A stretch of 64,000 nt of DNA. Source: a virus. The notes beneath the pieces were generated by a model. The model saw only the letters and a program-made list of their open reading frames with translations. It was not told the origin of the DNA and ran no database searches. A program made the translations under genes and the position numbers. The stretch spans positions 36,620 through 100,619 of IMG/VR virus record IMGVR_UViG_3300044769_000068. One strand, given 5' to 3'. Position 1 is the stretch's first letter. Each line of letters begins with the position of its first letter. Of the stretch, positions 23,180-46,544 are shown piece after piece.

Positions 23180-24921
23180 TCGATTCTTGAGAAGCCGTTT
23201 AGTCCTTTAGTTGCGGTAATTGTATGGTCGAACAAATACATCATATCATCAACTGACGAATGGTGACTAATGAAAATGCACATTGCATTGATGCTCACGG
23301 CGTATTGTTTGATAAACTCAATGACATATCTGCCACTTACATTGTCGAGATGGTCAAGAGCCTCGTCAACAATCAAGAACTTTAGGCGATTATTCTTGAA
23401 ATAAGTCATGGCGATATCAAGAAGCGATAGCACGATTACAATATCTACCTTCTGTTTTTCGCCACTAGATAGCTGGTCATATTTGAATTGTTCGCCATTT
23501 ATCGTGATTGCTTCGGTGATGTCAGAGTCGGTTATCACAAATTTGAACTGGAAGTCTTTATTGTAGAAGTTGTTTATGTACTTCTGCATGTTAGTATTGA
23601 GTACCTTCAAAAGGTCTCCTGCTAATGACATTCTAGTTTTAGACTTGGGCTCAAGCATTTCACGCCAAAACTCAGTCATATCAAACTTTGTTTTGGAATC
23701 TAGCCACTCCGTTTCCGCTAGCTCACACTTAGCTTTCACTTCTTCTACCTGACCGGCTGAAGACGTAATGTTACTGAATTTCTCAATGGTCTTTGTGTTG
23801 TTCTTGATCTGATACTTCTTTTCGTTTATGATACGCGTGCACTCGTTTGACTTCTCCACTGCAGTGTTGTACTGTTCGAATAAGGCTGAAGCCTTTAGGA
23901 TTCCAATTTCGTTTATTATGCTATTGAGTAGAGACGTAAACTCTTTGATCTTAGCGAGTTCGGCTGTAAGGATCTCGTCACGATTAGGCAGTCTTTGTCT
24001 GCATGTATGACATACTTCGTTCGTCTCATAATACTTGGCTCTCTTCTTGCTCTCGGCTAGCTGGTGCTCAAGCTTTGCCTTGGAGTCATTAGCGCCGCTA
24101 ATTTGCGTGTTCTTGCTTTCTATCTCTGGAAACAATGTTGAGACTACGCCACTAAAGCCTTCTCTCATCTTCTCGTCTAATACTATTTCTTGCTCCAGTC
24201 TTTTGTTGGCTGCTGTTAACAATTCGATGTTTTCATTAACATTCTTGGTAACACTCTCTTCTTGTTGCATCAGATTATCTAGAGCAGTTTTAAGTGCGTA
24301 ATATTCTCTATTGTTGTCGTCAAATACGGCTCTATCTTCTTTTGCCATGCCCTGAAGTGATGCGTAAATTTTAGACACAACGTTGAGATTGAGAACTCTT
24401 TCAAGAATGTCGATTTTGGCAGCGCTGCTACCCTTAACGAACTTGAAGAGCTCGGGATTCAATACGTTGTTGTTCACGAACACTTGATAGTTCATGCCAA
24501 TAATCTGTTCTATCTTAGACTGTATCTCTGTATTAGTCAAGTCGTTGGAGATACAGATGCCATTTTCGTACAGTGTTGTCTTAGAGAATGAGGGCGACTT
24601 GGAGCGCTGACGCTCTATTAAGTACTCGGCTTTTACAACGCCGTCGGTTGAATCGACGAATGTAAGCCCTACAAAAAGAGCTTTAGTAGATTTAGTTACG
24701 AGGTCGTCAAGATTAAGCTCTTTCTTAAGTGATCTGTAAAACAACGCTAAGACTATGCAGTCGACTAAAGTTGACTTGCCAGAGCCATTAGACGATCTAT
24801 CTTTCTCATCTATACCCTTAATTAATACAAGGTTGCCCTGGCGTTGAGTAAAATCTATTTCATGTCTTCCCTTGTATGAGTTGACATTTTCTATTACAAG
24901 CTTCTTTAGCTTAATTGACAT
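23176..24921 (-). CDS. SbcC/Rad50/T4 gp46-like recombination ATPase
   Basis: NGSGKST, central CHTC zinc hook, LSSGEKQ, IVDE. Confidence 0.93.
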   Translation of the reverse strand: MSIKLKKLVIENVNSYKGRHEIDFTQRQGNLVLIKGIDEKDRSSNGSGKSTLVDCIVLALFYRSLKKELNLDDLVTKSTKALFVGLTFVDSTDGVVKAEYLIERQRSKSPSFSKTTLYENGICISNDLTNTEIQSKIEQIIGMNYQVFVNNNVLNPELFKFVKGSSAAKIDILERVLNLNVVSKIYASLQGMAKEDRAVFDDNNREYYALKTALDNLMQQEESVTKNVNENIELLTAANKRLEQEIVLDEKMREGFSGVVSTLFPEIESKNTQISGANDSKAKLEHQLAESKKRAKYYETNEVCHTCRQRLPNRDEILTAELAKIKEFTSLLNSIINEIGILKASALFEQYNTAVEKSNECTRIINEKKYQIKNNTKTIEKFSNITSSAGQVEEVKAKCELAETEWLDSKTKFDMTEFWREMLEPKSKTRMSLAGDLLKVLNTNMQKYINNFYNKDFQFKFVITDSDITEAITINGEQFKYDQLSSGEKQKVDIVIVLSLLDIAMTYFKNNRLKFLIVDEALDHLDNVSGRYVIEFIKQYAVSINAMCIFISHHSSVDDMMYLFDHTITATKGLNGFSRIE

Positions 24922-26060
24922 ACGTTTTTCAACCTGCCTACAAATTTTTCTATTTCTTCAGGCGACTTATTCTTTGATTTCAAAAGCTCAGTCCCTTTTT
25001 CAATAATCAGATCGAATATGTTGATCTTATCTATTGACGACGTCATTATTTCCATCGCATTAAGTTCTTCTTCAGAATCAAGGCCTCTTGTTTCAAAGTC
25101 CGTAAACAGATCTTTATATTTATCTAGAAATTCACCGAGCTTCTTTTTGCCAGAGTCGCTGTTAAGCGAATAGATTGTAGCGTAGATATTAGTGAATGGA
25201 AACTTAGCTTTCTCGGTTTCTATGCGAGCTATCTTTCTTTCCAGACTTTCTGTTTTTTCAAGATTGAGCTTAAAGAACAGCGGGCAATAAGGATTTTCTA
25301 CGTACTTAATGTTGCAACCACTGGGTGATAGATCTAATACAGTCAAGCCTTTTCTTTCGGCTGAGTCTGAGAAGTTGTGATTAAGCACAGCTCCTACATA
25401 ATAGAAGTTGGATCCAATTTGACGTTTGAAGTGGATGTGGCCTGAAAATACTCCAGTATAGATGTCTAGATGTAAGTCATCATACGAATTGAATTGGCCT
25501 AATTGGTATGTGGATGAAATTAAGCCCTCATAAGCTTCTTTGATGTCTAAGTGACAGAATACATACGTATGAGTTTTAGAGCCCCGGAACTTTTCTGCAA
25601 GTGTAGCAAACGCATCTTTTAGTTTGTTCGGATCTCTAATATATGGCACAAATATAAAATGGGAGTTTATTTCTGACACAAACTTTACTTTGATGCTGCT
25701 CTTTATGAGCGTAACGCCACTTATGTTTTCTACCGTATCGACCGCTGAAGTTTCTTCGTTCCTATCATGATTGCCTTCTAGAACAACCATTGTCTTCGAC
25801 AATGTGTTTTGCGTTATATCGCTGAGAGCCTTTATAACTGCGTTGTATCTTTCTACATAGAAACGTAAGGCCTGATGGAACGTATCGCCCAGGTCGATAG
25901 CCATCATAGTGCCGGTAGTATTAGAGACGTCAGATATCCAAGAAAGGGTAGAATATAGTTCATCTATCCTTGAATATTCAACTGTCTTGAATTTTGACTG
26001 CCTTACATTGAAGTTATAGATATTGGCACAATGTAAATCGGCGAATAATAATATCTTCAC
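24906..26060 (-). CDS. SbcD/Mre11/T4 gp47-like nuclease
   Basis: ADLH, LGD, GNHD, FCH and GHIH metallophosphoesterase motifs. Confidence 0.92.
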   Translation of the reverse strand: MKILLFADLHCANIYNFNVRQSKFKTVEYSRIDELYSTLSWISDVSNTTGTMMAIDLGDTFHQALRFYVERYNAVIKALSDITQNTLSKTMVVLEGNHDRNEETSAVDTVENISGVTLIKSSIKVKFVSEINSHFIFVPYIRDPNKLKDAFATLAEKFRGSKTHTYVFCHLDIKEAYEGLISSTYQLGQFNSYDDLHLDIYTGVFSGHIHFKRQIGSNFYYVGAVLNHNFSDSAERKGLTVLDLSPSGCNIKYVENPYCPLFFKLNLEKTESLERKIARIETEKAKFPFTNIYATIYSLNSDSGKKKLGEFLDKYKDLFTDFETRGLDSEEELNAMEIMTSSIDKINIFDLIIEKGTELLKSKNKSPEEIEKFVGRLKNVCQLS

Positions 26061-35987: not shown

Positions 35988-36941
35988 ATGTCGGAAGAAC
36001 TCAATGACCTATTTTCTTTTTATATCGAAAACATCGAATTTAAAGAAGAACAGCTCGACAAAGCTTTCATTGATCAATACAAGCGCATCGACTTAGATAA
36101 GTCGACTGGTCGAATTGTTGCAGGTTACGCATCAACACCCGATTTAGATTCTGACGGAGAGACTATTGTTCAGAAGGGCTTAGACATATCATATTATCAG
36201 AAGTCTGGCTGGCTGAATTATATGCATAACAACAATCCGTCCCATGTAATCGGTATTCCTATTGAGTCTTATATTGATAGCAAGGGTTTCTACACAAAAG
36301 CGATGCTGCTTAATAACGATATGGCGAATGATGTTTGGAAACTCGAACAACAGCTCAAGTCTTTAGGCTATCCCCGTCACTTAGGTTTCTCGATAGAAGG
36401 CAAAGTAGTTGGCCGATCTGCCGTAAATAAATCAAAAATCATCAAGGCTAAAGTCACGAATGTTGCTATTACGCACATTCCCGTGAATACATTTGCGACG
36501 TTTGAAACAGTCTCGAAGTCTTTTGTTCCTCCGACTTACGACGAAGTGGTCGGCTATATAATGAAAGACCTCCCGTTAAAGAAAGACTTGGCGGCATTGA
36601 GTGCCTCACCCGGTCTCAATGCTGGTAGTAGTTTTGGAAGCGACAACTATACTGGTGGCGAAGTTTTGAGAACAGAGTCACTAGAAGGCGCAAATGCAAA
36701 CGCTTACAAAGGGAAAGCAGTCACAGGGAACGATAGAACGTCCGAACAAGAACTTGATGAACGTCTCAACTCAGCCTACCGTAGTGCTCACAAATCCCAT
36801 TCAGAATTAATAACTTTACTAAAGGCTGTCCACCCTGCAGCCTCTGAAAACTTGTTAGAAGAGATCACTAATCTCGTCTATAAGGCAAAGGGTATCGACA
36901 ATTTTATCAAAATAATTAGCGAATCAGAGGTATTAAAGTAA
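35988..36941 (+). CDS. Prohead maturation protease (HK97-type)
   Basis: AGYASTPDLDSDGE, NYMH, LGFSIEG, VAITHIPVN; start set at ATG 35988 behind GAAGGTGG. Confidence 0.88.
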   Translation: MSEELNDLFSFYIENIEFKEEQLDKAFIDQYKRIDLDKSTGRIVAGYASTPDLDSDGETIVQKGLDISYYQKSGWLNYMHNNNPSHVIGIPIESYIDSKGFYTKAMLLNNDMANDVWKLEQQLKSLGYPRHLGFSIEGKVVGRSAVNKSKIIKAKVTNVAITHIPVNTFATFETVSKSFVPPTYDEVVGYIMKDLPLKKDLAALSASPGLNAGSSFGSDNYTGGEVLRTESLEGANANAYKGKAVTGNDRTSEQELDERLNSAYRSAHKSHSELITLLKAVHPAASENLLEEITNLVYKAKGIDNFIKIISESEVLK

Positions 36942-37982: not shown

Positions 37983-39446
37983 ATGGATGAAGTACAGGGT
38001 TTTGGATTAGGATCCATGCAGGATGTCCAGGCCATTAACAAGGCCGTTGACTCGTTGTATAACGCGGGCACGGGAACCGGTTTGGCAGCTGGAGCTTCTT
38101 TTGGTTCCGACAATTATGGTAGCACTGGTGCGCAGTCCCTCAGAGTTGAATCTCTGGACTCGTCACTCAAGGTTATCACGTTCACTGATAAGCACATCAA
38201 CTTCTGGAAAGACATTCCGAAGTCACCTGCTTATTCAACGGTTGAAGAATACAACCAGTTAACCTCTTACGGCTCGCAGACGGGCGGATTTGTTTCTGAA
38301 GGCGAATTGCCATATCAGACAAACTCCGACTACGCCAGACGAGCAGCTCTGGTCAAGTTCGTTGGAACGACCAGATCAGTAAGCCACCCATTAACCTTGG
38401 TCCGTACGATGGTTCCTGATGTTATTGCGCAGGAAAACTCAAATGGTATCATGTGGATGCTCCGCCAGATTGAAAATTCTCTCTTCTGGGGCAACGATGT
38501 GGGTCTTACGGGTGAATACGTGGAATGGGCGGGCCTTGATAAGCTTCTTGGCGTAGGTCCAAACACGACTTCCGGTACAGGCGCTGGTAACACCTTCGAC
38601 CTCCGCGGAACAACTTTCTCCTCAACTCCTTTCACGACAATCGTCAATGACTTGGCACAGACAGTAGTTGATAACTTCGGTTTCCCAACTGACATTTATC
38701 TTCCATTCCCTGTCCTTGCAAAGATCAACGAAGAGTTCGCTGGAACCGCTGCACAGAGAGTAATTCTCCCAACAGCCTCTGGTAATACTCAGGTCAACAT
38801 TAACATTGACGGCCTTATGACTCAGGCTGGTCGAGTTAATCTCAAGCCAACCTTCTTCTTGCAGAAGACAAGAGTAGTTCCTGGTGCCGGTGACGGCGCT
38901 GCTAAGGTTCTTAAGTCTGGCGCTCTTGCGGTCGGAGGTACTTCTGTCACTATGTCAGCTGCAGGTACTCCTACAACTGGCTACTCAGTGGCTGCTGGTG
39001 ACTATGAAGGATCAGTCACTTTCAGAAACAAGTATGGTGAATCCGGCTCCGTCGCTCAGGGCGGTGGTACAATCACCACAAGCGGAACTAACACTCTTAG
39101 ATTCGCTATCACAGCTCCTCCAACCGATGCAGAATTCGTAGACCTCTTCATCACTCAGGTCGACGACGCTGCTGGCGTGAAGTATTGGGTTCAGACAATG
39201 GCCCTTACTACAATAGCTGCAGGCCCAACTAACTACGATTACAATGGTATTCGTATGCCTAACACCTATACCTGCTTCATCGGCCAGATGACTCCTGACG
39301 TTCTTACCTTCCGTCAGTTGGCTCCGCTGGTAAAGATGGATCTAGCAACGATCGCTCCGGCTTACAAGTGGATGATCCTGCTCTACGGTGTTCCTGTTCT
39401 CTTCGCTCCTTTGAAGTGGACCAGAGTTATTAACGTAAAGTATTAA
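37983..39446 (+). CDS. Major capsid protein
   Basis: LRVESLDSSLK, STVEEYNQ, FVSEGELP, IENSLFWG, LAPLVKMDLA; Herelleviridae-like pattern; strong GGAGG RBS. Confidence 0.93.
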   Translation: MDEVQGFGLGSMQDVQAINKAVDSLYNAGTGTGLAAGASFGSDNYGSTGAQSLRVESLDSSLKVITFTDKHINFWKDIPKSPAYSTVEEYNQLTSYGSQTGGFVSEGELPYQTNSDYARRAALVKFVGTTRSVSHPLTLVRTMVPDVIAQENSNGIMWMLRQIENSLFWGNDVGLTGEYVEWAGLDKLLGVGPNTTSGTGAGNTFDLRGTTFSSTPFTTIVNDLAQTVVDNFGFPTDIYLPFPVLAKINEEFAGTAAQRVILPTASGNTQVNINIDGLMTQAGRVNLKPTFFLQKTRVVPGAGDGAAKVLKSGALAVGGTSVTMSAAGTPTTGYSVAAGDYEGSVTFRNKYGESGSVAQGGGTITTSGTNTLRFAITAPPTDAEFVDLFITQVDDAAGVKYWVQTMALTTIAAGPTNYDYNGIRMPNTYTCFIGQMTPDVLTFRQLAPLVKMDLATIAPAYKWMILLYGVPVLFAPLKWTRVINVKY

Positions 39447-39504
39447 TCCTACTTTACATAACAAGAACTGACAGCATAGTTACAAACAGCAACTGAATCA
39501 TTCG

Positions 39505-39544
39505 AGGGGTCTTAATGGCACTGCTGTTAAGACCCCTTTTTTCT
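39505..39544 (+). terminator. Rho-independent terminator after the MCP
   Basis: aggggtcttaa (39505-39515) / ttaagacccct (39527-39537) followed by a T-tract. Confidence 0.8.
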
Positions 39545-39569: not shown

Positions 39570-39803
39570 ATGACTCTATATCCACAACCAGGGGACACAG
39601 TCGGCGTAGGCTATGTTATGTCGTCCTTTGTTAGAGGACCCGTCGGCCTGCAAGGATATTCAGGAGACAATTCTGGCTATTCTGGCATGCAGACTTCGGG
39701 CACATCAGGTTATGGCACCTCAGGTTACTCCGGATTTTCAGGTGCAACTGGTGCTTCTGGTTACTCTGGTGTTGACGGCTCTTCTGGCTACTCTGGCTTC
39801 TAA
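39570..39803 (+). CDS. Small collagen-like protein with G-x-S-G-Y-S repeats
   Basis: AAGGAG RBS; Gly at every third residue over most of the C-terminal half. Confidence 0.8.
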   Translation: MTLYPQPGDTVGVGYVMSSFVRGPVGLQGYSGDNSGYSGMQTSGTSGYGTSGYSGFSGATGASGYSGVDGSSGYSGF

Positions 39804-39831: not shown

Positions 39832-40068
39832 ATGGGACAATATCCAGCAGCGGGTGATTCGGTAGGGTACTCCTACACGTCCCCTCTTATAGGACCACGA
39901 GGCACTTCGGGCTATAGTGGTACTCTTGGTACAAGCGGTTACTCTGGAGGCATAGGCACGTCCGGCTATTCTGGTTCTGGTAGATCTGGATATTCTGGCG
40001 TAACTGGTGCAACCGGTACTTCCGGCTACTCCGGTACCGATGGTACTTCAGGTTACTCAGGCGTCTAA
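39832..40068 (+). CDS. Small collagen-like protein with G-T-S-G-Y-S repeats (paralog of 39570)
   Basis: GGAGG RBS; shared N-terminal YP.xGD(S/T)VG motif, then Gly-X-Y repeats. Confidence 0.82.
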   Translation: MGQYPAAGDSVGYSYTSPLIGPRGTSGYSGTLGTSGYSGGIGTSGYSGSGRSGYSGVTGATGTSGYSGTDGTSGYSGV

Positions 40069-40100: not shown

Positions 40101-40155
40101 CGCTTTAACCTGCGGCATTCTACTTGTCGCAATTTATTGCAAGGAGACAAGCAAT

Positions 40156-40552: not shown

Positions 40553-40942
40553 GTGATGGCTGATGTGACTGGGGCTCATACTACGTTTCATCCCGTAGTG
40601 TCTCAAAATACTGAATCGGTTCTAAGACATAGGGCTAGATTTCAAACTAGTTCAGGCAGCAAGATCAATTTGCCTCTCATTACTGGAACTAGATACATTA
40701 TATATTCAGCGTATACTGCTGGAAAGCAGCTTACAATTGGTATCTCTACTGACGGCACTAATTATGTCAGCGGCAAGACTTACTTCGATTTCTCTCAGGC
40801 AGCAGGCCCTGTTGACTTGACAAAATTCTTTTCTTCAACTCCCTTTACTCAATACACACCGCCAACAGCTACTGACGTTTATTTGCTCATCAAAACTGAT
40901 GCTGGCGAATTCACTGTTTCTATCGTTGAGTACAAAGTGTAA
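40553..40942 (+). CDS. Hypothetical (possibly virion) protein
   Basis: 129 aa, beta-rich composition, AGGAG RBS. Confidence 0.75.
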   Translation: MMADVTGAHTTFHPVVSQNTESVLRHRARFQTSSGSKINLPLITGTRYIIYSAYTAGKQLTIGISTDGTNYVSGKTYFDFSQAAGPVDLTKFFSSTPFTQYTPPTATDVYLLIKTDAGEFTVSIVEYKV

Positions 40943-41529
40943 TGGCTACCAAGGAAGAACTAAAAGAGGCGGTTTCTGAATCCCTCTTAGAGGCTCTTAA
41001 AGTTGCAGAAGAAAAACAAAAAGAAAGCGACGTTGTAACAAATTCAGGCCTTAATTGGGTTCTTAATCTATTAAATAAATTGATGCCTATGGCTCTCTTA
41101 GCGCTTATGGGATGGATAGCACTCACGATAGTTGACAATCAGAAAGATTTATTGGCAATGCGTCTTCAAGTTAATGCGATGGATAATACAATGAAAACCT
41201 TCATGGATAAAGACATGAGGAAGTCGGCTACAAGTGCGCTTCTTCATCACTCAACAACAGTCAATCCTTGCAGCGGCTGTCACACGCGAAATGGAGTAGT
41301 TGTTCACACACTAGCGTCTTTGCCAAACAAGTCTCTGATGCCCGGGGATCTGTTTGAAATTAAGTGCGGGTCCTGTCACACTCTTGATAGAGTTTTGGCG
41401 ACAAAGGGAACGCATGAGAAGTGGAAATCTGTTGTTAATGAAATGAGACAGAAGAACGCTAAATGGATTTCGCCTAGAGAGGCAATAATAATAGTTGATT
41501 ATATTGATCAATTAGAGAAGCATAAATAA
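40942..41529 (+). CDS. Membrane-anchored c-type cytochrome-like protein with two CxxCH motifs
   Basis: Hydrophobic segment LMPMALLALMGWIALTIV; CSGCH and CGSCH; LF..KC..CH.LDR...W..VV..M...I..Y cytochrome c pattern. Confidence 0.8.
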   Translation: MATKEELKEAVSESLLEALKVAEEKQKESDVVTNSGLNWVLNLLNKLMPMALLALMGWIALTIVDNQKDLLAMRLQVNAMDNTMKTFMDKDMRKSATSALLHHSTTVNPCSGCHTRNGVVVHTLASLPNKSLMPGDLFEIKCGSCHTLDRVLATKGTHEKWKSVVNEMRQKNAKWISPREAIIIVDYIDQLEKHK

Positions 41530-42278
41530 TGAAGATACAGAACCTGACTCCAGATTGGCTATTAGAAACATATCTTTATAGAATTCCCATTGAGTTCGAT
41601 AATGATAGACTTTCTAATTCAGCTATTCAGTTTTATATCGACTCTGCAATTAGCAGAGCTGAAATGTTACTCGATATCTCGATTAGAAAAAAGAGCATCG
41701 AAGCTGAAACGTATGACTATCGTTTGGAAGAATGGATGGCTGGTTTTGGATTTGTTGCGCTTAATACGCGTCCTGCTATTCGTGTGACTAAAATGTCATT
41801 GAATGTTATCACTAGTGAAATAGAGATTCCAGCGGAATGGATTCAACTTAAGAAGAAATCAGCACAAGTCAATTTGATTCCTTATTACGGTATGCTGGCT
41901 TCGCAGAATATTGCAAATCAAATATTGATATTTATGCCGATGTTGTCTGCTACTAGTTATGTGCCACAGATTTTGCGAATTTCATATGAAGCTGGCTATA
42001 ACGATACTGATGACGTTCCGGATCTATTAGCTCAGCTCATTGGTATGAACGCATCAATCGGAGTAATGAATGTTCTTGGTGAAATTGCTCTTGGAGGCCA
42101 AGCTGCTTTGGCTGGTTACTCTATTGGAATTGATGGATTATCTCAATCTGTCTCTACGACGCTGTCAGCAGAAAATCATGCTTACTCGGCTAGAGTTAGA
42201 GGTTATGAAAGAGAACAAGTTGAAATAGTTAAGGCTTTACGCCAGTACTACTACGGTCTACACCTAACGAGCTGCTAA
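41529..42278 (+). CDS. Head-tail adaptor / head completion protein
   Basis: AISRAEMLLDISI, ETYDY, IGIDGLSQS pattern; position after the MCP as in SPO1/Twort-like phages. Confidence 0.7.
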   Translation: MKIQNLTPDWLLETYLYRIPIEFDNDRLSNSAIQFYIDSAISRAEMLLDISIRKKSIEAETYDYRLEEWMAGFGFVALNTRPAIRVTKMSLNVITSEIEIPAEWIQLKKKSAQVNLIPYYGMLASQNIANQILIFMPMLSATSYVPQILRISYEAGYNDTDDVPDLLAQLIGMNASIGVMNVLGEIALGGQAALAGYSIGIDGLSQSVSTTLSAENHAYSARVRGYEREQVEIVKALRQYYYGLHLTSC

Positions 42279-43108: not shown

Positions 43109-44848
43109 ATGGAGAATAGACGAGTAATGCCGGGACTATATAAGGGCTATCCTGAAAGTCTTAAGAAAAAGGACAGCGAGGAAAGGGATCACACAGATCC
43201 TATGCACAAGCCTGAAGCGGCAGAAAAGGCTAGAGAAAAGGCCGAGGCTGCTTCTGACGAAAAGAAGGAAAAGTCCTATTCTCAAGATGATGTTACCGTT
43301 GCTTATCTCCTTAAGGGCAGATCAAACGCTCAGGAGCTGTTCGACTTAGCAAAGGCGCCCGTTATCGGTGGGTCAATTTATGCTGGCAGAACGATGCCAA
43401 AGGATCTTTCGCCTTCTGAGGGCAAAGTTATCGCAGCTCAGACAGCAAAAAAGCCGGGCGGTCTTACTGGTGGGGCTTCAGAGGAATTGAAGTCTCGTGC
43501 AGCTAAAGAAAAGCAGACGATGATGGACACAGCACAGGCTAGACTTAGAGCTCAAACAGCTGCAGTCAAGTCAGAAGAACCATATTCATTGGATTTCTCA
43601 AAGTCTATTCTTGATAAGATGGGCTTAACAAAAGCTAAGAAAGAAACTAACGAATCAGGCGAGGAATTTCAAGATGGATCAGAAGACACTATTGGCGCAG
43701 AAGGACATGCGGCCACTGCTAGACCTATTGCGCATGAGGGCGGCGGTCAAGGGCCAGACCACCCTGGTACAAAAACTAAAAGAGCATCTCAAGAAGATGG
43801 AGATCTCCAAAAATCCGACAACCTAACTGACAATCTTCCAGAAGAATTTGAGGAAGGCATTGAAGACGCTGACACGATTCCTAATGAGGATGAAAAAGCG
43901 GCAGTTGAAGGTAAGAAGTCTTTTACTTACGACGAAATGAATGCTGCTATTCTTCTCAAGTCTTCTCCATTTGCTCAAGAGATCGTTGACTTGATTAAGG
44001 CTGCTAGAGATGAAGAAGCAGCTAGGGATTACAAATATAACGCTTGGCGGAAGAGATCGGATGTTCGTGCAGCCAAATGGAAGTCAGGAATAGACGCCAC
44101 CAAGAGAGCTGTCCAGCACTTCAAGAACAAGGCTGATCTGGCTGAGGAAGACGAAGCTGGAAAGTCTGAAGGCGAAGGCGATCTTGAAAAGTCTCACACA
44201 AGTAGAGTTGGAAACGCTTCTCCAACAAAGGGCGCGGCCGGAAGACATTTCGCCCGTGAGGCACGTGAAGACCAGAAGAAGGAGGATGCAAAGTATCGCA
44301 TTCCTCGACATGCCTCTGTTTTAGGTTCTGGGGGAGAAGTGACTAACGTTAGTGACAAGGTGATTCGTGTTCGTCCAGCTCAAGGTGGCACAGTAGGATC
44401 AGAAGCTAAGATTAAATCGGTCTGTGAATTGAACAACATTCTTGAGAAGGCGGTAGAAAAAAAGCCCAAATCAAGAGGCCCAGGTATAGATTACATATCT
44501 GAAAGCAAAATGAACAAGCCTAACGTTAAAGTAACAGGCGAAAAGATGCATGGTCGAGAGATTCCTGCTAATGCTGCTCATGAAAAAGAGCTTAAGGAAG
44601 CGTCTTTACATACTGAACTAGATTCACTTCTTGAGAAGGCTAGACGCCCATCGTGGGACCCTAAGCCCAAGCATGTCGATGAAGACAAAGAAGCGTTCCA
44701 TGCCGACTCCTTATCGGGAGATGCGGGATCAAGAGAGCATGAATACAAGCGTAAGCAAGAGTTAGCGGACAAATGGCAGGCTAAAAAGAATTCTCCAGAA
44801 TTCAGAACAGCCTCTAAGATAAAGGATGCCGACGAAGGCGACGATTAA
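43109..44848 (+). CDS. Low-complexity charged protein with repeated K[S/A] modules; putative internal head polyprotein
   Basis: 30-aa repeat KSYSQDDVTVAYLLKGRSNAQELFDLAKA / KSFTYDEMNAAILLKSSPFAQEIVDLIKA; motifs shared with the scaffold. Confidence 0.6.
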   Translation: MENRRVMPGLYKGYPESLKKKDSEERDHTDPMHKPEAAEKAREKAEAASDEKKEKSYSQDDVTVAYLLKGRSNAQELFDLAKAPVIGGSIYAGRTMPKDLSPSEGKVIAAQTAKKPGGLTGGASEELKSRAAKEKQTMMDTAQARLRAQTAAVKSEEPYSLDFSKSILDKMGLTKAKKETNESGEEFQDGSEDTIGAEGHAATARPIAHEGGGQGPDHPGTKTKRASQEDGDLQKSDNLTDNLPEEFEEGIEDADTIPNEDEKAAVEGKKSFTYDEMNAAILLKSSPFAQEIVDLIKAARDEEAARDYKYNAWRKRSDVRAAKWKSGIDATKRAVQHFKNKADLAEEDEAGKSEGEGDLEKSHTSRVGNASPTKGAAGRHFAREAREDQKKEDAKYRIPRHASVLGSGGEVTNVSDKVIRVRPAQGGTVGSEAKIKSVCELNNILEKAVEKKPKSRGPGIDYISESKMNKPNVKVTGEKMHGREIPANAAHEKELKEASLHTELDSLLEKARRPSWDPKPKHVDEDKEAFHADSLSGDAGSREHEYKRKQELADKWQAKKNSPEFRTASKIKDADEGDD

Positions 44849-44849
44849 T

Positions 44850-46544
44850 ATGGATCGACAGGAAATTGACGAACTAGTGGCCAAATCTACTCCCGAGTGG
44901 GCTGCTAAGAAAGTTGGCAGTGCTATTGGTAAGTTTGCTAAAGAAAACGTTCATAGAGTCCCTAAGGAGCGGAAAAACTTAGAACAGCCGCCACATAAGC
45001 CAAAGGATCCCGTTATACGACGCATGGCTGAGAGAGCACAGAAGGTCGGAGAGCACATGAGGAGCCATTATAAAATGAAGCCCGGTGAATTTGAAAAATA
45101 TCAGGGAATTGCTGACGCTGAAGCGCGTCGAACTTCTAAGTCCATTGACGAACAAACTTCAGAATATTTTGCTAAGTGTCATTCGCATGTTCTTGACGGG
45201 ATGACTGAAGACGAACTAAAGAATAAGAAGAAAGAAGCGCCCAAGGCTGACGGCCACGTCTTTGGTAGCGATCCGAATGACAAGCGTGGCTCTGATATGG
45301 AAATGGTGAAAAAGAAAGAGCCTGATGCTTACAAGTCTCTTGATGAAAGAACAGCTGATCTTCACAAGGCTGTTACGGGCAATAAGAAAGTCAAAACTGG
45401 CGATGTTGATCAGCACGACGATCATGTTCGTTCTACGGAGTCGTCAAAGATTGAGGGTGGCAAAAGAGTAGGCCCAGGCACCGATAGATTTACTCATACG
45501 TCTCACGATCCAGAAAAGGGCGAAGTAAAGATTACAACGTCTAATTGGAATAAGAAAACTCAAAAGTATGAACATGGAGAAACTACTCATCCGACACACG
45601 TACGCATGGGCAGCGGAACCGAAGCTAATCAAGATTTGCCTAAGAAGTCCTTGATTGCTACAGTGGATGAATTGCTCGAAAAGTCAGGCGTACGTCAGGT
45701 TCATAGAGTTAAGGATCAAGGCGCAGCCAGTAAAGTAAAGAAGATTGATCCTAAGACTCTTTCACACGACCGCCAGCAACAGCTTCTTAGCGGTTCAGCT
45801 GCTAAAGTAAAGGCTTATCGTGAAGAGGGCTACGTTCCAGATAAGGACGACACGCCTGAGGTTAGAGAGCAGGACAGAGATCCTTCGAACAAGTCTCTAA
45901 CATCTACGCTTGATGATTTGCTCAAGTCGATGTACGATATAGTGCATCACAAGCGATTCAGCAAGATGGATCCTGATGCTGGGATAAACAAAAAGAAGGA
46001 AGAAGCTATGGAAAGAGGCCCTTCAGACAAGGGCGACTACAAGCCCGGCTCTAAGACTTTCAACAACCCGCAGGATTCTCAGGATCCTAAGATTCGTTAT
46101 AAGTCTCTTGATGATAGAACATGCGATTTAGTGAAGTCGATCGACACGCAGCGGGCTAAAGAAATCAGGGACGCTGCTTTGACCGTTAGACTTTCACGAG
46201 AAGGAATATCGAGTGCTGCTTCTAAGATGGATGTTAAGCCAGAGGATGTTCATCGTGTCGAAACAAAACTTACAGGACTTCACGCTGCTAGAGAATCTTC
46301 CCTCAAGTCAGTTTGCGATATGTGGATTGGCGAAACGTCGATGATAAAAGGCCATACGATTCTTCCGGGCAATGCTGTGGGAGATTTAGCAAAAGACGAA
46401 CGCAAGCCGGGTGGTAGAACTCCAACTCTTCAGCAAACGGACGAGAAACAGAGAGAAGTAGAAACAGGCAGTATTTATCGCAGACAAAAAGCCGAAAAGA
46501 GAGTTAATGCTCTGAAAGAGGAACAGGCTTTCGGTAGCAAATAG
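44850..46544 (+). CDS. Low-complexity charged protein with six KS...K[S/A/G/C] linker repeats; putative internal head polyprotein
   Basis: KSIDEQTSEYFAKC, KSLDERTADLHKA, KSLIATVDELLEKS, KSLTSTLDDLLKS, KSLDDRTCDLVKS, KSVCDMWIGETSMIKG; start 44850 or 44826. Confidence 0.6.
   Translation: MDRQEIDELVAKSTPEWAAKKVGSAIGKFAKENVHRVPKERKNLEQPPHKPKDPVIRRMAERAQKVGEHMRSHYKMKPGEFEKYQGIADAEARRTSKSIDEQTSEYFAKCHSHVLDGMTEDELKNKKKEAPKADGHVFGSDPNDKRGSDMEMVKKKEPDAYKSLDERTADLHKAVTGNKKVKTGDVDQHDDHVRSTESSKIEGGKRVGPGTDRFTHTSHDPEKGEVKITTSNWNKKTQKYEHGETTHPTHVRMGSGTEANQDLPKKSLIATVDELLEKSGVRQVHRVKDQGAASKVKKIDPKTLSHDRQQQLLSGSAAKVKAYREEGYVPDKDDTPEVREQDRDPSNKSLTSTLDDLLKSMYDIVHHKRFSKMDPDAGINKKKEEAMERGPSDKGDYKPGSKTFNNPQDSQDPKIRYKSLDDRTCDLVKSIDTQRAKEIRDAALTVRLSREGISSAASKMDVKPEDVHRVETKLTGLHAARESSLKSVCDMWIGETSMIKGHTILPGNAVGDLAKDERKPGGRTPTLQQTDEKQREVETGSIYRRQKAEKRVNALKEEQAFGSK

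Follow-up and report, generated by a model that had tools for sequence, protein, structure and literature searches.

What is a gene for a protein with a membrane anchor and two c-type heme motifs doing among the head and neck genes of a phage? The question was raised by a stretch of viral DNA of 64,000 nucleotides (the window; positions 36,620 to 100,619 of IMG/VR record IMGVR_UViG_3300044769_000068), in which a sequence-only reading had picked out such a gene and taken its product for an auxiliary electron-transfer protein, or for a redox sensor or effector tied to assembly or lysis timing. The ORF at 40942-41529 contains every element claimed for it: an acidic N-terminus, one transmembrane (TM) segment, a coil, HH, CSGCH, a compact C-terminal domain and a Met. 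The gene and its product, P0001, are laid out as follows, in coordinates of the window.

40942..41529, + strand: whole gene P0001, 195 aa, stop codon included; same protein in at least 22 contigs
40942..41079, + strand: residues 1-46, acidic amphipathic N-terminal helix (TKEELKEAVSESLLEAL...), predicted cytoplasmic; conserved in the Herelle-like subclade
41080..41136, + strand: residues 47-65, single transmembrane segment, signal anchor, probably N-in/C-out
41137..41223, + strand: residues 66-94, QKD-led heptad coil (stalk); Q67 and K68 invariant
41245..41283, + strand: putative heme site 1, H102-H103-x6-C110-S-G-C113-H114, minimal motif, probable bis-His ligation
41329..41526, + strand: residues 130-195, class-I monoheme cytochrome c domain of the SorB / QH-AmDH-alpha / cytochrome c_z C-domain type
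41365..41379, + strand: putative heme site 2, C142-G-S-C145-H146; invariant in 27 domain sequences
41443..41445, + strand: M168, candidate distal (sixth) ligand of heme 2; invariant in 27 sequences

The hydrophobic segment at residues 47-65 has a Kyte-Doolittle value of 1.9. Residues 63-94 are patterned as a heptad helix: the best register places hydrophobic residues at 7 of 10 a/d positions, and the other registers do so at 2-5. The C-terminal domain of 66 aa carries CGSCH and Met168, and IIIVDYI is also present. Two CxxCH motifs in a protein of 195 aa are far above chance, 0.0017 being expected from the composition of the genome's ORFs, and P0001 is the sole ORF with two of them in the 116-kb record. 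In seven homologs of 53-86% identity both CxxCH motifs, HH and M168 are all invariant. The AF2 model of the full-length protein was not usable (pLDDT 52); the model of the C-terminal domain alone was used.

At least 22 contigs from ENA, Logan and JGI samples of several studies share the identical P0001 protein and its gene order, and diverged homologs occupy the same slot. GC and GC3 of the gene resemble those of the neighbouring genes. The surroundings of the gene are given below.

37983..39446, + strand: major head protein, upstream of the P0001 gene (phrog_752 5.8e-78)
39504..39538, + strand: strong intrinsic-terminator-like hairpin after the capsid gene, 16 pairs and a T run
40553..40942, + strand: upstream 129-aa gene, a conserved gene of the clade (E 1e-29 to the L031 ORF)
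40940..40944, + strand: TAATG stop/start overlap with the upstream 129-aa gene, 1 nt shared
41527..41531, + strand: TAATG stop/start overlap with the downstream adaptor gene, 1 nt shared
41529..42278, + strand: downstream 249-aa SPO1 gp6.3-type head-tail protein, the adaptor (phrog_772 4.8e-40)

The TAATG joins to both neighbours are therefore as first described, and the P0001 gene has no Shine-Dalgarno sequence of its own. Terminator-like sites were absent from the + strand between 40132 and the 3' end of the gene at 41529; the 119-aa, 129-aa and cytochrome genes and the start of the adaptor gene thus lie on one uninterrupted stretch, the same that bears the late head/neck genes. The major head protein shows about 41% identity to Herelleviridae capsid proteins, its closest cultured relatives belonging to phages of Firmicutes, and the adaptor matches Exiguobacterium phage EalM132_00069 at E 4e-42. 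The 137-aa gene before gp6.3 in the Exiguobacterium phage was considered as a counterpart; it gave no alignment to the 129-aa ORF at E <= 100 and a best E of 33 with P0001, and is unrelated to both. Lysis genes were not found in a PHROG scan of the record's right end. The description of P0001 as a membrane-anchored protein with two putative c-type heme sites, probably made from a late head/neck operon, is supported by these sequence features.

The slot between the 129-aa gene and the adaptor gene was surveyed in 22 related loci, anchored on the adaptor (gp6.3-type) gene. It is empty in 10 of them, the 129-aa gene there abutting the adaptor gene directly; the nearer relatives have filled slots and the empty ones belong to more distant phages. 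No CxxCH ORF was seen within about 5 kb of the empty slots. In two further loci, L025 and L030, the slot is filled by heme-less proteins. The L025 protein carries the same 45-aa helix (73% identity, E 7e-20) fused to a different, heme-less C-terminal part, which shows a module swap. The L030 protein was tried as a family homolog (probability 35%), and homology was not established. Conservation across the phages that share the head/neck module, as expected of a virion structural protein, was not observed. With the slot empty in so many loci and non-heme alternatives in two, the P0001 gene does not belong to the fixed content of the structural module, which corrects the earlier reading. Its product is accessory and not that of a core virion gene. 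The P0001 gene is thus shown to be a real, conserved accessory gene of an uncultured SPO1/Herelleviridae-like myophage.

Both profile and fold identify residues 130-195 as a genuine class-I cytochrome c module of the SorB / QH-AmDH / cytochrome c_z type. The domain profile matched 1jju_A (8e-13), 1jmx_A (1e-11), 3a9f_A (1e-8), 7uea_C (6.5e-8) and 2blf_B (1.4e-5) in the PDB. The AF2 model of the domain has a pLDDT of 93, and its top four Foldseek matches were 2blf_B, 3a9f_A, 3a9f_B and 1jju_A (TMq 0.63-0.70), with E-values that are weak (0.09-1) because the domain is small. Two Cys, the His, a Trp and the Met are invariant in the 27 domain sequences, and M168 aligns with the Met of the ...RM... 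motif in 1jju, 1jmx and 3a9f. P0001 itself lies below the curated cut-offs of PF09098 (14.1 against 25.2 bits), PF13442 (13.5 against 27) and SorB (21.6 bits, cut-off 93); all its cytochrome matches in Pfam and NCBIfam were sub-threshold, and PHROG gave none. By contrast, the cellular relatives that phmmer turned up for the domain score above curated cut-offs; they are multi-repeat cytochromes. The cluster name of one relative of the domain points to a Candidatus Poribacteria MAG.

Matches from an exhaustive search with P0001 fall into a C-terminal class and an N-terminal class, and the N-terminal part of the protein defines an orphan, metagenome-only family. HH-x6-8-CxxCH and one hydrophobic segment (Kyte-Doolittle 1.6-2.7) are present in 22 of 22 members. 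The family invariants are Q67, K68, H102, H103, C110, C113 and H114, with HH and CxxCH in all 18 aligned members; different residues follow CH (T, V, G, D, I, Q, K), and exact 7-residue duplications of the QKDIVAT type occur in three members. Most members bear a single heme motif of roughly 13 residues on a coiled-coil stalk. The second, C-terminal domain was gained only in the subclade of P0001, and members outside the clade are without the N-terminal helix and keep the TM segment, coil and heme motif. Members with a short N-terminus have a net positive one, and their periplasmic part is about 55 aa long. The profile of the N-terminal module met only coiled-coil noise in the PDB and Pfam, and no cytochrome family; the PF18509 profile found one of 15 family members at E 0.15, which is not significant. 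From its motif, site 1 is probably a magnetochrome-like minimal heme site with bis-His ligation and low potential. P0001 is thus shown to be a one-TM protein of two modules, one an orphan phage module and the other a cellular-type class-I cytochrome c domain; it is a composite in which a phage family with one minimal heme motif has captured the cellular domain. Since domains of the latter type mature only outside the cytoplasm, the likely topology of P0001 is fixed as N-in/C-out, which the TM segment and the positive N-termini of the short members also suggest.

Short family members were found in the lysis cassettes of unrelated phages. P0124 and the L066 relative lie downstream of a GH108 endolysin (PF05838 37.8 bits; phrog_315 1e-21) and also follow a 3-TM holin (PF11351 65.7 bits; phrog_3427 1.6e-26), and P0138 comes after a gene for an Rz-like i-spanin (phrog_739 4e-7) and a lipobox ORF that overlaps it. 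In L048 and L066, which have the PF11351 holin already, the family member comes after endolysin and holin, and no further spanin was detected. The family member of L047 lies behind a distinct Rz-like / lipobox pair. As the cassettes of L047 and L066 already have a holin or spanins, the family protein would be at most a regulator in them. The lysis-cassette members are the most distant of the family (phmmer E 5e-7 and 1e-6), and TM and coil composition accounts for part of their score. Unrelated accessory genes, lambda bor among them, classically insert at the ends of lysis cassettes and of late operons, and adjacency to lysis genes is thus weak evidence of function.

The phage of P0001 has a second protein of this kind, P0174, a TM-H-x10-CNDCH protein with 33 homologs in which the motif is invariant. 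Genes of the P0174 type overlap the stop codon of an exported SLT transglycosylase gene in 7 of 7 contexts; the P0001 gene, in the head/neck operon, lies away from the SLT gene. Homology of P0174 to the P0001 family was rejected, CxxCH alone being aligned (probability 26%). Amidase_2 and Phage_lysozyme were not found in G000, a 71% complete record, nor was Amidase_3 found there or in three related records; a Ccm or Ccs gene (PF01578, Cytochrom_C_asm) was not seen in G000 and three related, incomplete phage records.

A tblastn search of 50,697 deposited phage genomes with P0001, P0124, P0138 and P0174 gave no match, in keeping with the earlier remark that no counterpart was known. In 185,579 species genomes nothing was found either by a capsid scan or by a scan with a pattern of the N-terminal helix, which is narrow and would miss members with a short N-terminus. 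Foldseek against viral predicted structures gave nothing above noise, and the ESM Atlas only coiled-coil look-alikes and unnamed viral clusters. A degenerate DNA pattern scan of viral contigs returned the already-known family members and L066 only, the other matches being out of frame or without an ORF.

The distant relatives of the core in lysis cassettes point to an envelope role late in infection and not to the virus particle. The reading that we tentatively prefer, with somewhat less than even confidence, is that P0001 is a periplasm-facing heme protein tied to envelope or lysis control. P0001 would be inserted N-in/C-out, and the host cytochrome c maturation system would attach two hemes to it on the outer side of the membrane. 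Heme 1, in a minimal site like that of magnetochromes, would have two His ligands and a low potential, and heme 2 would be ligated by His and Met. P0001 would oligomerise through its coil. At the cell envelope, in the last phase of infection, it could then act as an accessory to lysis control that responds to redox state, in the manner of an antiholin or lysis regulator, so that when or how efficiently the cell lyses would depend on the state of the electron-transfer chain in the host periplasm. Through the added C-terminal domain the minimal heme would be connected to host cytochromes, and the protein would not be a virion component.

I-spanins, class III holins and antiholins are built as a type-II TM segment with a periplasmic coil. 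The likeness of P0001 to holins and antiholins that had been remarked on holds for this topology; homology to known holin, antiholin or spanin families was not detected with Pfam, PHROG and N-module profiles. The lysis-timing or redox-effector idea first proposed draws independent support from genomic context, namely from the lysis-cassette members and from the coupling of P0174 to the SLT gene. The heme-less proteins in the slots of L025 and L030 were counted against lysis control. A wider form of this proposal is rather unlikely: small type-II membrane proteins with covalent heme on a periplasmic stalk would have arisen at least twice independently in phages, as the HH-x6-8-CxxCH family and the SLT-coupled H-x10-CNDCH family, and would gate lysis by the host's respiratory or redox state as redox-sensing antiholins or lysis timers. 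In the Herelle-like clade the sensor would have moved to the head/neck operon, and one subclade would have gained the class-I domain linking it to host cytochromes.

Auxiliary electron transfer, the other option offered by the sequence-only reading, is possible and nearly as likely as envelope or lysis control. P0001 would then be a membrane-tethered periplasmic cytochrome c (extracytoplasmic in a monoderm host) of the host respiratory chain, linking a quinol oxidoreductase or bc complex to a terminal reductase or oxidase, and could keep up or redirect the energy supply in late infection. The captured domain comes from electron-carrier families (SorB / QH-AmDH / PscC), with multi-repeat cytochromes as its cellular relatives, and so favours this explanation over lysis control. 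The gene is accessory and variable, as auxiliary genes are, and there are documented cases of c-type cytochrome genes in phages. In Firmicutes, the group infected by the cultured phages nearest in capsid sequence, c-type cytochromes are as a rule anchored in the membrane. On the other hand, the family core has no detectable cellular counterpart in Pfam, the PDB and the genome scan with its narrow pattern, and the short heme motif on a coiled-coil stalk, which is all that most members have, is unlike any host carrier. The translational coupling of the P0001 gene in a structural operon, the recurrence of members in lysis cassettes and the second TM-CxxCH protein beside the SLT enzyme also speak against it.

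It is improbable that P0001 is a spanin-like helper that spans the envelope or aids membrane fusion, its TM segment and coil crossing the periplasm and its heme being structural and not redox-active, so that a covalent heme gives a tiny C-terminal tip its fold or an oligomer contact. The build of an N-terminal TM segment and periplasmic coil would suit such a role, as would the placement of the family member behind endolysin and holin in L048 and L066, two cassettes in which no further spanin was detected, and the equivalent position of P0174 after the SLT gene. Of the marks of an Rz-type i-spanin, however, P0001 has the N-terminal TM segment and coil only: no lipobox ORF was found in or after its gene for a cognate lipoprotein, and Rz PHROGs were not matched. 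Moreover, L047 already has its own Rz-like / lipobox pair, and the periplasmic part of the short members is short for a spanin.

We likewise give little credence to a site 1 that holds no heme, in which HH...CxxCH would bind Zn, Cu or Fe or form a redox-active CxxC, leaving the C-terminal domain as the sole heme carrier. The N-module profile matches no cytochrome family and the full-length model is of low confidence, as this would have it, but the His that directly follows CxxC is kept by every one of the 18 aligned members and occurs in 22 of 22, the spacing fits the described minimal heme unit, and the module has been joined to a genuine cytochrome c domain lying on its own side of the membrane.

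Less probable still is a membrane-anchored assembly factor whose cytoplasmic N-terminal helix tethers a head/neck component to the inner membrane, the outer part being dispensable. The fixed slot beside the adaptor gene, the translational coupling and the retention of the helix in L025, where the rest is swapped, would agree with it. Against this, 10 related phages have the same structural genes and an empty slot, members outside the clade are without the helix and yet have TM segment, coil and heme motif, and the invariant residues lie in the outer part and none in the helix. An assembly chimera, which the sequence-only reading had itself warned of, is excluded, and flanking host DNA can be dismissed with it, by the identical gene order in at least 22 contigs from independent samples of several studies, the diverged homologs in the same slot and the GC and GC3 match with the neighbours.

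The cytochromes hitherto described from phages copy subunits of host pathways. The heme motif considered here is carried by a minimal, membrane-anchored protein family specific to phages, which turns up repeatedly in lysis cassettes and in a late structural operon; the exported muralytic enzyme of this phage is coupled to a second family, similarly built but unrelated. Should these proteins bind heme, they would rank with the smallest c-type cytochromes found in nature outside magnetotactic bacteria, and phages would exploit the host cytochrome maturation machinery for envelope-directed functions of their own. There would also be a concrete route tying lysis timing to host respiration, which would matter for phage ecology in soils and sediments with fluctuating electron acceptors. 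If they are plain electron carriers, the catalogue of auxiliary respiratory genes would be extended by a new architecture.

Among known systems, the class-I domains of SorB, QH-AmDH alpha (PF09098) and PscC c_z share with residues 130-195 the CxxCH motif, the invariant Trp and Met, the four-helix layout and the fold. In contrast to them the phage domain scores below Pfam and NCBIfam cut-offs (about 14-22 bits), is a single copy behind an unrelated TM-coil-heme module in a structural operon, and has no partner dehydrogenase or reaction centre. Bacillus subtilis CccA, a membrane-anchored cytochrome c of a monoderm bacterium, also has an N-terminal TM anchor followed by an extracytoplasmic heme c domain; P0001 differs from it in the 46-aa cytoplasmic helix, the coiled-coil stalk, the extra minimal heme motif and the subfamily of its heme domain. 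Rz-type i-spanins and the T4-type class III holin T and antiholin RI share the predicted N-in orientation, single TM segment and periplasmic coil part, whereas P0001 has no sequence or profile similarity to them and no o-spanin partner, and we know of no lysis protein that bears a heme motif.

The minimal heme unit of magnetochromes is [P/T/H]H-X5-9-CX2CH, with the upstream His as sixth ligand, in proteins with one TM helix (PMC3971196). The HH-x6-8-CxxCH motif of the single-TM phage proteins fits this pattern in 22 of 22 members, but homology to the magnetochromes of MamP, MamE, MamT and MamX (PF18509) is not detectable (one of 15 members, E 0.15). The phage motif is single and not tandem, it lacks a PDZ or protease partner and a conserved hydrophobic residue behind CH, and the context is a phage and not a magnetosome. 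The resemblance lies in a possible mode of action and not in family membership. Finally, soxD, a c-type cytochrome gene, occurs on viral contigs (PMC8190135), and the Nitrosospira phage roc1 has bc1 subunits with CcmEFH (bioRxiv 10.64898/2026.05.02.722434). Like P0001, their products are phage-borne CxxCH proteins dependent on host maturation; they are recognisable copies of host pathway subunits, accompanied by pathway partners, whereas the core of P0001 is phage-specific, tiny and TM-anchored, and is found in a structural or lysis operon.

The cytochrome gene and the features around it in the window are as follows.

40942-41529, + strand: cytochrome gene, ORF of 195 aa (P0001)
40940-40944, + strand: TAATG stop/start overlap on the 5′ side of the gene
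41527-41531, + strand: TAATG stop/start overlap on the 3′ side of the gene
39504-39538: strong hairpin resembling a terminator, with a 16-bp stem and a T run, 3′ of the major capsid gene
39570-39803 and 39832-40068: two small ORFs (77 and 78 aa) with collagen-like GYSG/SGYSG repeats, right after the capsid terminator
40111-40131: weaker terminator-like site

P0001 has an acidic N-terminus, one hydrophobic segment (residues 47-65) and a helix whose best heptad register is hydrophobic at 7 of 10 a/d positions, compared to 2-5 in the remaining registers. The motif residues are H102-H103, C110-S-G-C113-H114, C142-G-S-C145-H146, M168 and IIIVDYI. Each element named in the sequence-only reading (charged N-terminus, transmembrane (TM) segment, coil, HH with CSGCH, Met, IIIVDYI) was found in this ORF, and the TAATG overlaps which it described with both neighbours are real. 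No Shine-Dalgarno sequence proper to the gene was detected. For a protein of 195 residues, the overall ORF composition of the 116-kb record predicts 0.0017 CxxCH motifs; P0001 is the sole ORF of the record with two.

The source record is an IMG/VR virus of 115,967 b with an estimated completeness of 71%. The upstream major head protein matches phrog_752 (5.8e-78) and is ~41% identical to capsids of Bacillus, Exiguobacterium and Lysinibacillus Herelleviridae. Directly 3′ of the cytochrome gene lies the SPO1 gp6.3-type adaptor gene (E 4e-42 to its Exiguobacterium phage homolog). ENA, Logan and JGI samples yielded at least 22 contigs, of up to ~163 kb, that carry P0001 with identical sequence and gene order, and both halves of the gene resemble the neighbouring genes in GC and GC3. 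An assembly chimera or host flank, the former named earlier as a refuting outcome, is thus excluded. The strong hairpin occupies the position of an annotated terminator in Exiguobacterium phage vB_EalM-132. As no terminator-like site was found on the + strand from 40132 to the 3′ end of the cytochrome gene at 41529, the 119-aa, 129-aa and cytochrome genes and the adaptor start lie on one uninterrupted stretch. The GYSG-repeat ORFs are kept in relatives, are longer in L027 (108-109 aa), gave one weak PF01391 match in L016 and could serve as head fibres or as decoration proteins. After the neck genes, two extremely charged, low-complexity proteins of 579 and 572 aa are encoded (43109-46544); relatives carry a comparable large ORF at this place.

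An exhaustive protein search of 1.8 billion representatives gave 332 matches in two classes, N-terminal-only and C-terminal-only. Matches of the C-terminal class are confined to residues ~135-190, often occur 2-8 times per protein and belong to cellular multi-repeat cytochromes above the curated cut-offs of PF09098 and PF13442, and of the SorB model in two cases; the phage copy scores under the cut-offs. Cys, Cys, His, Trp and Met are invariant among 27 aligned domains. A search of PDB with the profile of these domains retrieved quinohemoprotein amine dehydrogenase heme domains (8e-13 and 1e-11), the cytochrome c_z/PscC C-terminal domain (1e-8 and 6.5e-8) and SorB (1.4e-5). Residues 130-195 were modelled at pLDDT 93, and Foldseek placed the same four PDB entries on top (TMq 0.63-0.70). 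From profile and predicted fold together, these residues are a class-I cytochrome c domain. M168, aligned with the conserved Met of solved relatives, is the candidate sixth ligand.

Matches of the N-terminal class are confined to residues 2-116. These proteins of 95-190 aa share the N-terminal helix, TM segment, QKD-led coil and HH...CxxCH, and end shortly thereafter. Only Q67, K68, H102, H103, C110, C113 and H114 are invariant in 18 aligned members, which answers the earlier question of whether homologs retain CxxCH. One TM segment and HH-x6-8-CxxCH are present in all 22 members found, and other cysteines are absent except for a TM cysteine in some. In three members a 7-residue unit of the QKDIVAT type is duplicated exactly, in keeping with a heptad coil. 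The module matched no Pfam family, PDB chain, deposited phage genome or viral predicted structure. The second domain is limited to the window's subclade (seven proteins at 53-86% identity and the one at locus L003); the remaining members have tails of 3-65 residues. As judged from these comparisons, P0001 is a phage core module that took up a cellular cytochrome domain, giving a predicted di-heme protein.

The slot between the 129-aa gene and the adaptor was surveyed in 22 related viral loci anchored on the adaptor gene. Where the adaptor is 70-78% identical, a family member usually fills the slot (L020, L021, L022, L023, L003, L029, L027/L028), and the short members P0017, P0046 and P0024 occupy the same place. 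L025 and L030 also fall in this identity band. The slot of L025 (4575-5000) encodes a protein of 141 aa that is 73% identical to member P0004 over residues 1-45 (E 7e-20) and different and heme-less in its remainder, with a C-terminal TM and a CRC motif, a module swap; an additional 234-aa gene lies upstream. In L030 the slot encodes a helix-TM-coil protein that is likewise heme-less and whose relation to the family is doubtful. In L027/L028 a remnant is wedged between the family member and the adaptor, evidence that mobile elements have moved through this slot.

L027 4843-5010 and L028 2584-2751: 55-aa GIY-YIG-like remnant, GIYKIVNQVDGKFYIGSA...

In the 10 loci with adaptors 60-69% identical, the adaptor lies directly 3′ of the 129-aa-gene homolog (E 1e-29) and no CxxCH ORF was found in the locus. 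The cytochrome gene is thus confined to a subclade, where it fills a variable spot; judging from these gene orders, an essential role in the virion is excluded for it.

In two members the clade-specific N-terminal helix is missing, and the N-terminus is short and positively charged. Both sit in lysis cassettes of unrelated phages. The first is P0124, which has a relative at L066: on a 31.6-kb viral contig, tail fibre genes are followed by an endolysin of the GH108 type (PF05838 above cut-off; phrog_315, 1e-21), a 3-TM holin (PF11351, 65.7 bits; phrog_3427, 1.6e-26), the family member and a divergent repressor-type gene, which points to a temperate phage. L066 1-7456 shows this order around a 95-aa heme-motif protein; its divergent regulator is of the ImmA/HTH type (phrog_2439, 2e-77), and it has no recognisable spanin. 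The second member, P0138, is preceded by a TM-rich ORF and a spanin-like pair; the i-spanin matches phrog_739 (4e-7), and the lipobox ORF is probably the o-spanin.

L047 1405-2089: Rz-like i-spanin (150 aa) and overlapping ORF with lipobox-like LLASTMAFTC, directly 5′ of P0138

A second TM-CxxCH protein, P0174 (112 aa), is encoded in the same phage outside the window.

Genome 23834-25934 (L018 3834-5934): putative lysis region with a 78-aa multi-TM holin-like ORF, an inserted methyltransferase, SLT and P0174
Genome 25036-25934: exported SLT transglycosylase (PF01464, 56.6 bits) and P0174

The P0174 start codon overlaps the SLT stop codon. P0174 has a helix at its N-terminus and a single TM; behind its H-x10-CNDCH motif, the tail (LGASFVNLFN...KIKRW) is very conserved. 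The motif is invariant in 33 homologs, and the pairing with SLT is kept in 7/7 contexts, in most of which a small multi-TM ORF lies immediately 5′; no copy was found in deposited phage genomes. Homology to the target family was rejected on comparison. Together with the lysis-cassette members, P0174 gives two unrelated phage families with the predicted build of a type-II anchor plus periplasmic CxxCH, both found beside muralytic or holin genes. Directly after P0174 lies a 54-aa Cys-rich ORF, CEFCRCRTNANLRRCC (L018 5928-6092, genome 25928-26092), a position that would suit an o-spanin; it lacks a lipobox and matched no family. Further along, a cytidylyltransferase/NUDIX fusion (genome 28373-31691, L018 8373-11691; phrog_395, 2e-77) is followed in relatives (L044) by NAMPT/NAPRTase genes, a hint of an NAD salvage module among these phages.

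The gene, its conservation, modular make-up, accessory status and neighbourhoods are directly observed. P0001 would insert N-in/C-out, since a class-I cytochrome domain matures only outside the cytoplasm and the N-termini of short members are positive. Heme would be attached by the host system; no PF01578 gene was found in four incomplete related phage records. Site 1 would be bis-His and site 2 His/Met ligated, and the coil may mediate oligomerisation. Our tentative reading is that P0001 is an envelope-acting, redox-responsive accessory of lysis control. Against this, the window copy lies outside the lysis cassette, the members found in such cassettes are the family's most distant ones, and P0001 has no similarity to known lysis proteins. 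Cassette ends also tend to attract accessory genes of unrelated kinds. The chief rival, an auxiliary electron carrier, is favoured by the nature of the captured C-domain and by phage-borne cytochrome genes already documented, and ranks only slightly lower in likelihood. A spanin-like helper, an assembly tether and a non-heme metal site are minor alternatives to the lysis-control accessory.

The nearest cultured capsid relatives infect Firmicutes, in which c-type cytochromes are membrane-anchored. Diderm hosts are suggested instead by the exported SLT and by those relatives of the target family that have spanins. A Shine-Dalgarno-like motif precedes ~58% of genes.

In the libraries and literature searched, no phage-specific minimal TM-anchored heme-motif family in structural or lysis operons, no fusion of it to a class-I domain and no second analogous family in the same phage were found, in agreement with the earlier remark that no such gene is known from a characterised phage structural operon. 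All evidence on the family is drawn from sequence. Phage-encoded cytochromes as such are already known. The minimal magnetochrome unit is [P/T/H]H-X5-9-CX2CH, with the upstream His as sixth ligand (PMC3971196). The target-family motif HH-x6-8-CxxCH fits this pattern, but the magnetochrome profile is unmatched (E 0.15, in one of 15 members). The likeness concerns a possible mode of action of the site and does not extend to family membership.
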